From positions 281,790,001 to 281,854,000 of the forward strand of contig OZ024741.1 in the NCBI GenBank assembly GCA_964016885.1: DNA of 64,000 nucleotides. Direction: 5' to 3'. The notes below the pieces were generated by a model that was given only the letters and a program-made list of their open reading frames with translations, made no database searches and had not been told where the DNA came from. The translations under genes and the position numbers were made by a program. The stretch is from Eledone cirrhosa (Eukaryota). Of this stretch, positions 58,613-59,424 are shown piece by piece; positions within the stretch are counted from its first letter, which is position 1, and the number at the start of each line of letters is the position of its first letter.

Positions 58613-59424
58613 TCATTTACTGCATATCTCACAATGATTCGTATTAACTACACTACTCAATTATTTCAGAATTTTATTTGTCTAGCAAGTGACATGATCT
58701 GATACCATGTTTTGAAACTAAAAACACTGCATGGAGGAGTAATTTTAGCTATTTAAAAACAGAAAAACTTAACTTTGTACAAAAACATTATTTATTTTCC
58801 AGTGTCAATTGCAGTACAACTATGTCAATGACCTGGTCGCAGAGTGCTGCAAAAATGTTGAGACTAAGAAAGTATATATATATATATATATATATCGTTG
58901 AGGGAAGATGTGGTAGAGGTAGACCACGGGGGGGGGGGCATGGACGGGGGTGGTGAGAACAGACCTCAGACTGTGTGTGTGTGTGTGTGTATATATATAC
59001 TTTCTTAGTCTCAACATTTTTGCAGCACTCTGCGACCAGGTCATTGACATAGTTGTACTGCAATTGTGAACATTTTGACACTGGAAAATAAATAATGTTT
59101 TTGTACAAAGTTAAGTTTTTCTGTTTTTAAATAGCTAAAATTACTCCTCCATGCAGTGTTTTTAGTTTCAAAACATGGTATCAGATCATGTCACTTGCTA
59201 GACAAATAAAATTCTGAAATAATTGAGTAGTGTAGTTAATACGAATCATTGTGAGATATGCAGTAAATGACTAAGTTTTTTAAAAGTCAGTACATTGCAG
59301 TAGAAAATACAAAGGGCAAATGATGGTAAATGAAACCAAACAAAATAATGTTTTACCCAGTGTTATTATGCATGATATTTCAGGGCCATTACCCTCTTTT
59401 CAGATGTAGAGCTGAAAGAGTCCA
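58479..59424. repeat. Large inverted duplication (fold-back) with (TA)n, RTE fragment and (TG)n in the loop
   Basis: 58479-58882 is the reverse complement of 58990-59424 (about 2 substitutions, two indels). Loop 58897-58970 matches 60173-60242. Confidence 0.96.

Follow-up and report, generated by a model that had tools for sequence, protein, structure and literature searches.

A 74-nt LINE piece in a hairpin loop of Eledone cirrhosa shares rare A>G changes with the LINE insertion downstream of it

A hairpin in the Eledone cirrhosa assembly encloses a 74-nt piece of the LINE that lies downstream of it. We analyzed both within a 64,000-nt stretch of contig OZ024741.1 (the window, to whose first letter all positions refer unless stated otherwise). 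By a rare run of G and seven common A>G changes, the loop piece and the downstream LINE are of one lineage, and the piece stands between real inverted-repeat arms in the assembly. The downstream LINE carries an excess of A>G changes that is confined to one strand and clustered. The G-run and this excess are likely ADAR (A-to-I) edits of the LINE RNA, made before insertion. We give about an even chance to the following order of events: an edited LINE inserted, an early templated insertion was made in a nearby TA run, and a later fold-back formed around the piece. The features concerned are listed below; a dot marks a feature given without strand.

58258..58658, dot: palindromic MITE-like repeat; 58258-58611 matches itself inverted at 73%, and the right half lies inside the duplicated arm
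58479..58882, +: left arm, original DNA and fold-back template; lacks 20 nt (58499/58500) and 11 nt (58805/58806); substitutions at 58485 and 58566
58660..58872, +: left part of an old palindromic repeat, with genome matches at 71-89%; split by everything from the TA run onwards
58873..58895, dot: TA run of 23 nt, left of the loop piece; the fold-back has it as one of its two inverted microhomologies
58897..58970, +: LINE piece in the loop, 74 nt, a copy of 60173-60242; seven common A>G, G-run grown to 11, private changes at 58909 and 58944
58971..58999, dot: filler of C, (TG)9 and (TA)5, right of the loop piece; when 58860-59010 is folded, its (TA)5 pairs with the TA run on the left
58990..59424, -: right arm, an inverted copy of 58479-58882, broken off within the MITE and fused to a TA run
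59425..59522, dot: long, slightly impure TA run, as read from the sequence
59520..59568, +: right-hand relic left by the old palindromic repeat; target DNA that was there before, rather than filler
59563..59569, +: candidate 7-bp target-site duplication; its 3′ copy, 60358-60364, overlaps the GAT tail
59569..60361, +: 5′-truncated LINE with a (GAT)n tail; 793 nt, 17 rare A>G
59938..59998, +: A>G cluster 1, with 10 changes over 61 nt that are private to the downstream LINE
60178..60220, +: A>G cluster 2; 60178, 60206-60210 (the G-run) and 60220, all seven also in the loop piece (the count takes in 60206, a commoner variant)

Alignment within the window confirmed the first-pass annotation's match of 58897-58970 to 60173-60242, about 1.3 kb away and in the same orientation, together with its aberrant G-run. 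Over 70 columns, 65/70 letters are equal and five are substituted, and a 4-nt gap falls inside the G-run, which is G11 in the loop and G7 in the LINE (blastn E 1.7e-20 within the window). That annotation had expected the best genome match of the 74-mer at 60173-60242, and there it was found: genome-wide, among the 40 of 482 candidates that were scored, the top non-self match was the downstream LINE (88%, 93.3 bits), followed by a copy on C12, L003 (86%, 89.7 bits). The exact anchor-plus-G5 pattern occurs three times in the 3.0-Gb assembly, in the loop piece, the downstream LINE and L003, and the anchor alone 5,182 times, so that the G-run stands in 3/5,182 anchored family copies, a count that leaves out copies with a mutated anchor. 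The run is therefore not common in the family, and no closer match than the downstream LINE turned up among the candidates scored. Its ancestral state is clear: 26 of the 27 readable anchor copies among the first 30 fetched have G followed by five A, and the remaining one has the run duplicated. The G-run is thus the family's A5 read as G5, with G at all five positions in the downstream LINE. Where the run lies, an intact family copy reads RPRKTW, as had been claimed for other RTEs.

The distribution of the differences tells how the two copies are related. All seven A>G changes of the LINE segment are present in the loop piece, and so they stand twice in the assembly; derived changes other than A>G that are common to both number zero. 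Three of the five differences (60194, 60221, 60226) are private to the downstream LINE, and the loop piece has the family base there. The other two, 58909 and 58944, are private to the loop piece, the former being a CpG site at which 26/99 family copies also have T. A piece that has all seven A>G and none of the LINE's three private changes implies an early split. Common edits cannot separate the kinds of template, since RNA, cDNA, and inserted DNA all carry them. Of the earlier proposal that both pieces derive from the same RNA/cDNA lineage, the single lineage therefore stands on the rare G-run and the seven A>G, and the choice of RNA or cDNA over inserted DNA does not follow from the edits. 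Three other sources were considered and rejected. A recent error-prone copy of the downstream LINE could not restore the family base at three sites. L003 is neither sibling nor donor: its long match is TA repeat, it belongs to another subfamily (3/21 diagnostic sites), and it lacks cluster 1. An edited subfamily was set aside too, as no second copy matched cluster 1 at >86% among the 40 of 836 candidates that were scored, by which the cluster 1 changes are private.

The downstream LINE starts at about base 3,904 of a 4.7-kb reference copy and ends 3′ in (GAT)n. In its intact relatives, which measure 4.7 kb, a 1,025-aa frame encodes endonuclease, RT, and PHD domains and the RPRKTW motif (PF03372, PF00078, and also PF00628 in the 1,025-aa frame of L140). 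With APE and RT in these relatives, a truncated 5′ end and a 3′ repeat tail, it is a non-LTR element, probably inserted by TPRT; it is presumably RTE-type, the label given in the first-pass annotation. Four copies of the family (L140, L141, L136, L144) keep open frames of 1,023-1,025 aa, and two of them, L140 and L141, are 4.7 kb long and ~98% identical to L137. Such identity and such frames suggest a family that is young and possibly active. Compared with its 19 nearest copies, the downstream LINE has 28 non-A>G differences in 775 columns (3.6%). TA runs stand at 29 of 66 truncated 5′ ends in the family, that of the downstream LINE among the 66, and at 25 of 83 3′ ends.

In those 775 columns the downstream LINE has 17 rare A>G vs 1 T>C, where 3.2 A>G would be expected from 99 other copies (P 5e-8); with 58 copies as comparison, the counts are 17 and 2. 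The clustering is equally marked, 10 A>G in 70 nt being reached by 0/20,000 permutations. The sequence context is less telling in this copy. G precedes 5/16 edited and 23/47 unedited A in the downstream LINE alone (P 0.26, not significant), and enrichment of G on the downstream side is not significant in it or in L142. When a natural unedited copy was folded, no long stem linked the two clusters and no double-stranded partner emerged; an internal RNA stem between clusters 1 and 2 was rejected on that ground. What had been called a defect is real and common to both pieces, and we reinterpret it as likely A-to-I editing.

Another copy of the family bears the same signature far more heavily. In L135 (= L142; C22, around 12,775,000-12,777,200), which is young, A>G makes up 74 of the 75 rare differences counted over 1,472 nt. 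G stands upstream of 12/73 clustered edited A vs 88/191 unedited A (P 8e-6), in agreement with the ADAR preference, in which G is depleted upstream of the edited A, as described in PMC5625713. We infer ADAR as the cause strongly for L135 and, by extension, for the downstream LINE. A pattern search found the last A of the A-run changed in 31 copies, one of which, L135, has further changes in the run. The same copy has two duplications, a short one at the 5′ end and another where an internal deletion is joined. L003 (C12:48,873,496-48,873,564) is the third copy with a G-run at the A5, four A being changed there; it has 6 rare A>G and no T>C, and is inserted in TA repeat. Four edited positions within 60178-60210 are common to L142 and the downstream LINE, three of them also to L003, suggesting preferred editing sites in the family RNA. 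Over the 3′ 780 nt of 99 family copies, a set partly picked for A>G, the background is 189 A>G vs 65 T>C, against 236 A and 157 T in the majority sequence, and low-level editing across the family is possible. That the G-run arose by slippage or ordinary mutation, with an A>G excess unrelated to RNA editing, is hardly credible: homopolymers do vary in length (G7 vs G11), the family background leans the same way and the upstream-G context is not significant in the downstream LINE by itself, but cluster 1 consists of 10 scattered A>G outside any run, the A>G changes of L135 with their ADAR context largely refute this reading for that copy, and a second change in the run is seen in 0/28 copies of a control T5 run vs 1/31 for the A5 run (small numbers).

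The loop piece lies within an inverted repeat, 58479-58882 against 58990-59424. In the assembly its arms differ by two substitutions in 404 columns, and the left arm lacks 20 nt and 11 nt that the right arm has. The right arm keeps the family state at all three arm differences that could be polarised: the 20-nt segment is present in 24-26 of 28 MITE copies, the right-arm base at 58566 in 23 of 28, and inspection by eye shows the 11-nt segment in L157 and L158. Neither arm has the family base at 58485. Bases 1-160 of the query 58500-58870 have many genome matches at 78-91%. Between the arms, 10 nt of TA pair across a 107-nt spacer. An inverted copy of adjacent DNA, inverted microhomology and a spacer together make this a fold-back.

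Public sequence covers part of the structure. One contig, found in runs X1 and X2, equals 59008-59254 of the right arm with zero differences. Its word depth is 13.3 and 7.2 in these runs, compared with 4.7, 4.0, and 3.2 (X1-X3) for a contig downstream; contig depth is not copy number, and X1-X3 are one sample, possibly the assembly's source, so that the higher depth fits two arms only weakly. No contig from the examined runs crosses a hairpin junction, left-arm deletions are not listed in the contigs, and none is listed over the edited clusters; 58850-59007 counted as repeat in this comparison, so that neither read nor contig covers the loop, and the RAD-seq run X21 gave MITE relatives only. 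An artefactual hairpin, from a fold-back read or from two haplotypes joined head to head with only the loop piece real, would leave junctions without contigs in just this way, and the arm differences (0.5% and two indels) are within the size of allelic differences. A fold-back read would, however, yield identical arms, the right arm ends at a new junction inside the MITE, and in the same two runs the arm contig is the deeper one, which weakly points the same way. We consider an artefact very unlikely.

The DNA on either side of the hairpin once formed one element. The family to which 58670-58776 belongs is an old repeat, and its copies have an inverted arm of their own. From matches to 58660-58872 and 59520-59568 (L148-L168), this palindromic family is widespread as well as old, and a further inverted repeat lies at its centre. 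In L164, a match to 58823-58868 is followed directly by a match to the relic stretch, with a score of 55 vs 47 for the local arm; L155 scores 51 on this stretch, and 4 of 21 family copies score at least 36. Because the two parts are adjacent in L164, 58872 and about 59520 were once adjacent here, and the TA runs, loop piece, filler, and right arm all lie inside the old repeat. The stretch 59525-59568 also matches 58743-58776 (score 44 vs 31, the best of 400 window controls) and might be taken for a second fold-back copy of greater age; this was ruled out, the stretch being the old repeat's own right arm, adjacent and collinear in L164.

Between the hairpin and the LINE lie 44-49 nt of old-repeat relic. 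The 5′ end of the LINE thus meets pre-existing DNA, with the loop piece and the arm upstream of that junction, which argues against a single multi-switch junction: between the hairpin pieces and the LINE, 59520-59568 is intact, collinear target DNA. The candidate 7-bp target-site duplication has a chance of ~4-5% of matching at random (2/55 each way; 167/3,080 mismatched pairs). Homology to the old repeat does not resume past the 3′ end of the LINE, and a target deletion is therefore possible.

The relative ages of the parts also differ. As the first-pass annotation had cautioned, the piece pair is more diverged than the arms (5/70 vs 2/404, P 0.001), so that the duplicated parts are not of one apparent age, with the proviso that arm conversion could mask age. 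Arms so much less diverged than the piece pair make the fold-back the younger of the two, unless the arms were later homogenised. At a rate of 3.6%, the likelihood of five differences is 0.175 for a split at insertion, 0.019 at half that age, and 3e-6 at the arms' apparent age. The loop piece thus appears to be old and to have split early, as far as five sites can tell. The same annotation had tied the fold-back and the insertion to one multi-template-switch event. That claim is weakened, both by the relic target DNA that precedes the LINE and by the lesser divergence of the arms.

The order of events that we favor would then run as follows. Partly A-to-I edited LINE RNA would have been reverse-transcribed into the old palindromic repeat, giving a 793-nt copy with G for A at 17 sites; the excess of A>G is plain in the copy, and ADAR is its probable author. 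At insertion, or before the copy had reached about half its present age, a TA run ~50-150 nt upstream may have broken, and repair synthesis would have borrowed 74 nt from the new copy (as cDNA or as inserted DNA, ~0.7 kb off) and added the TG/TA filler. For this step the shared lineage and early split are observed, and the borrowing is our proposed mechanism. Later, a nascent strand ending in the right TA run could have folded onto the left TA run, copied ~425 nt of upstream DNA in reverse and then returned to a TA run; the structure is present in the assembly, and its timing is what we propose. The loop piece would accordingly be a spacer around which the fold-back closed, not cargo that it captured. 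Hairpin and loop piece are probably a local repair accident without function.

Two rearrangements of these steps deserve weight. In the first, one edited RNA was reverse-transcribed twice, the main copy at the candidate target-site nick and the 74-nt piece at a nick in the TA run, and the fold-back came later. Both copies have all seven edits and no later mutation in common, the family often sits in TA runs, and multi-piece insertions from one RNA are reported for L1 (PMC11702581). The loop piece, however, lacks a tail, neither of its ends shows microhomology to the LINE, and no site is edited in one copy only, which would mark two reads. Nor are extra pieces usual at the family's 5′ junctions: we found them at 3/60 vs 1/60 in controls, with inverted flank at 2 vs 2, no enrichment in a count that overlooks short duplications through which BLAST runs, and so rejected them as a family trait. 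We regard a second reading of the RNA as unlikely. A bolder form would have one ADAR-edited LINE RNA read twice in a single germ-line event, at nicks <200 nt apart, with the edits as barcodes of the order of steps and ADAR as a recurring source of heritable multi-site mutation in the LINEs of this animal; it is doubtful. By eye, five family copies (L019, L023, L064, L107, L125) show short duplications of their own sequence at or just inside the 5′ junction. The duplicated piece of L023 has TA runs on both sides, a miniature of the loop-piece case.

In the second, which comes near the view of the first-pass annotation, all is one old event: a TA run broke at or close to the time of LINE insertion, several template switches during repair made both the piece and the inverted arm, and the arms were later homogenised by intrastrand template switching. 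Within error, the loop piece and the LINE are of equal age. The two arm substitutions fall in the outer 88 nt, leaving the inner 316 nt free of any (P ~0.05, a hand calculation made after the fact), which is the pattern expected if homogenisation spread outwards from the loop. Template switching is described as homogenising inverted-repeat arms in yeast (PMC8604942), and PMC11702581 describes L1 insertions with flank inversions and with templated genomic inserts. Nevertheless, for this history to hold, conversion must have run through almost all of the 400 nt yet passed over two deletions; if there was none, two or fewer arm differences have P ~1e-10 at the LINE rate and 9e-6 at a hand-counted non-CpG rate. 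Moreover, the intact target DNA between arm and LINE shows that they are not one 5′-junction product. We judge a single old event improbable, and keep to the stepwise order with a later fold-back.

Related cases are on record. In cultured human cells, 3 of 235 L1-mediated pseudogene insertions are reported with clustered ADAR-type changes, and the same report describes three insertions with flank inversions, three that carry templated genomic inserts, and fold-back junctions with reverse-transcribed sequence inside them (PMC11702581). The cases set out there are somatic, arose in induced cell lines and have their edits in inverted Alu repeats of passenger mRNAs. Here, in contrast, a reference assembly is concerned, the edits lie in the LINE's own coding sequence and no partner stem was found; the fold-back duplicates 0.4 kb of local DNA away from the LINE junction and appears to be younger. 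Hyper-editing of repeat RNA by ADAR across animals, as described in PMC5625713, resembles our case in its clustered A>G on one strand and its depletion of upstream G, and that source names octopus as one of the two species with the strongest signal. Its edits are seen in RNA reads against unedited DNA, whereas the changes here sit in DNA. A DNA-level likeness is offered by APOBEC-edited LTR retrotransposons (PMC4866542), with fixed, strand-biased clusters of one substitution and the complementary change as control. Those are G>A on the cDNA of vertebrate LTR elements, and ours are A>G changes in a non-LTR element, on its sense strand; the source describes the APOBEC signal as absent from 19 invertebrates, with a filter that selected against A>G alignments.

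The hairpin itself resembles the fold-back inverted duplications of yeast, in which an inverted flank copy is primed at a short inverted microhomology (PMC11724301), and the template switching at yeast inverted repeats, with later homogenisation of arms (PMC8604942). The duplications of PMC11724301 are given as mostly ~5-34 bp; ours measures ~425 bp, with TA runs supplying the microhomology and a piece of LINE forming the spacer. LINE 5′ junctions with additional bases have been described (PMC2718515, PMC2666801). Active RTE LINEs are described in octopus (PMC9115989), where RTE-clade elements of the RTE-2_OV type have one long frame of ~1,000-1,100 aa and recent activity; the likeness to our family is drawn from that description rather than from sequence comparison.

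As a rule, A-to-I edits vanish when the RNA does. In this case they have apparently been written into inherited DNA by way of a LINE, as L135/L142 shows far more strongly. We found no report, by title and opening lines in the open-access literature (subscription journals lying outside), of germ-line-fixed A>G-edited LINE copies in an invertebrate genome; for human cell culture, the ingredients are already in print (PMC11702581). Edits of this kind barcode a single RNA molecule, and so can show which pieces of a complex insertion have a common template. A family-wide count would measure how often ADAR acts on germ-line LINE RNA.

The window holds further mobile DNA. A 611-aa open frame at 49314-51149, with RT and PHD-like motifs, belongs to a distant LINE relative with ~68% DNA identity to the downstream LINE, and a further relative lies near 46,000-47,100 on the minus strand. 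Terminal inverted repeats of ~27 nt, flanked by TA, bound an element at 61355-62655, which is presumably Tc1/mariner-like.
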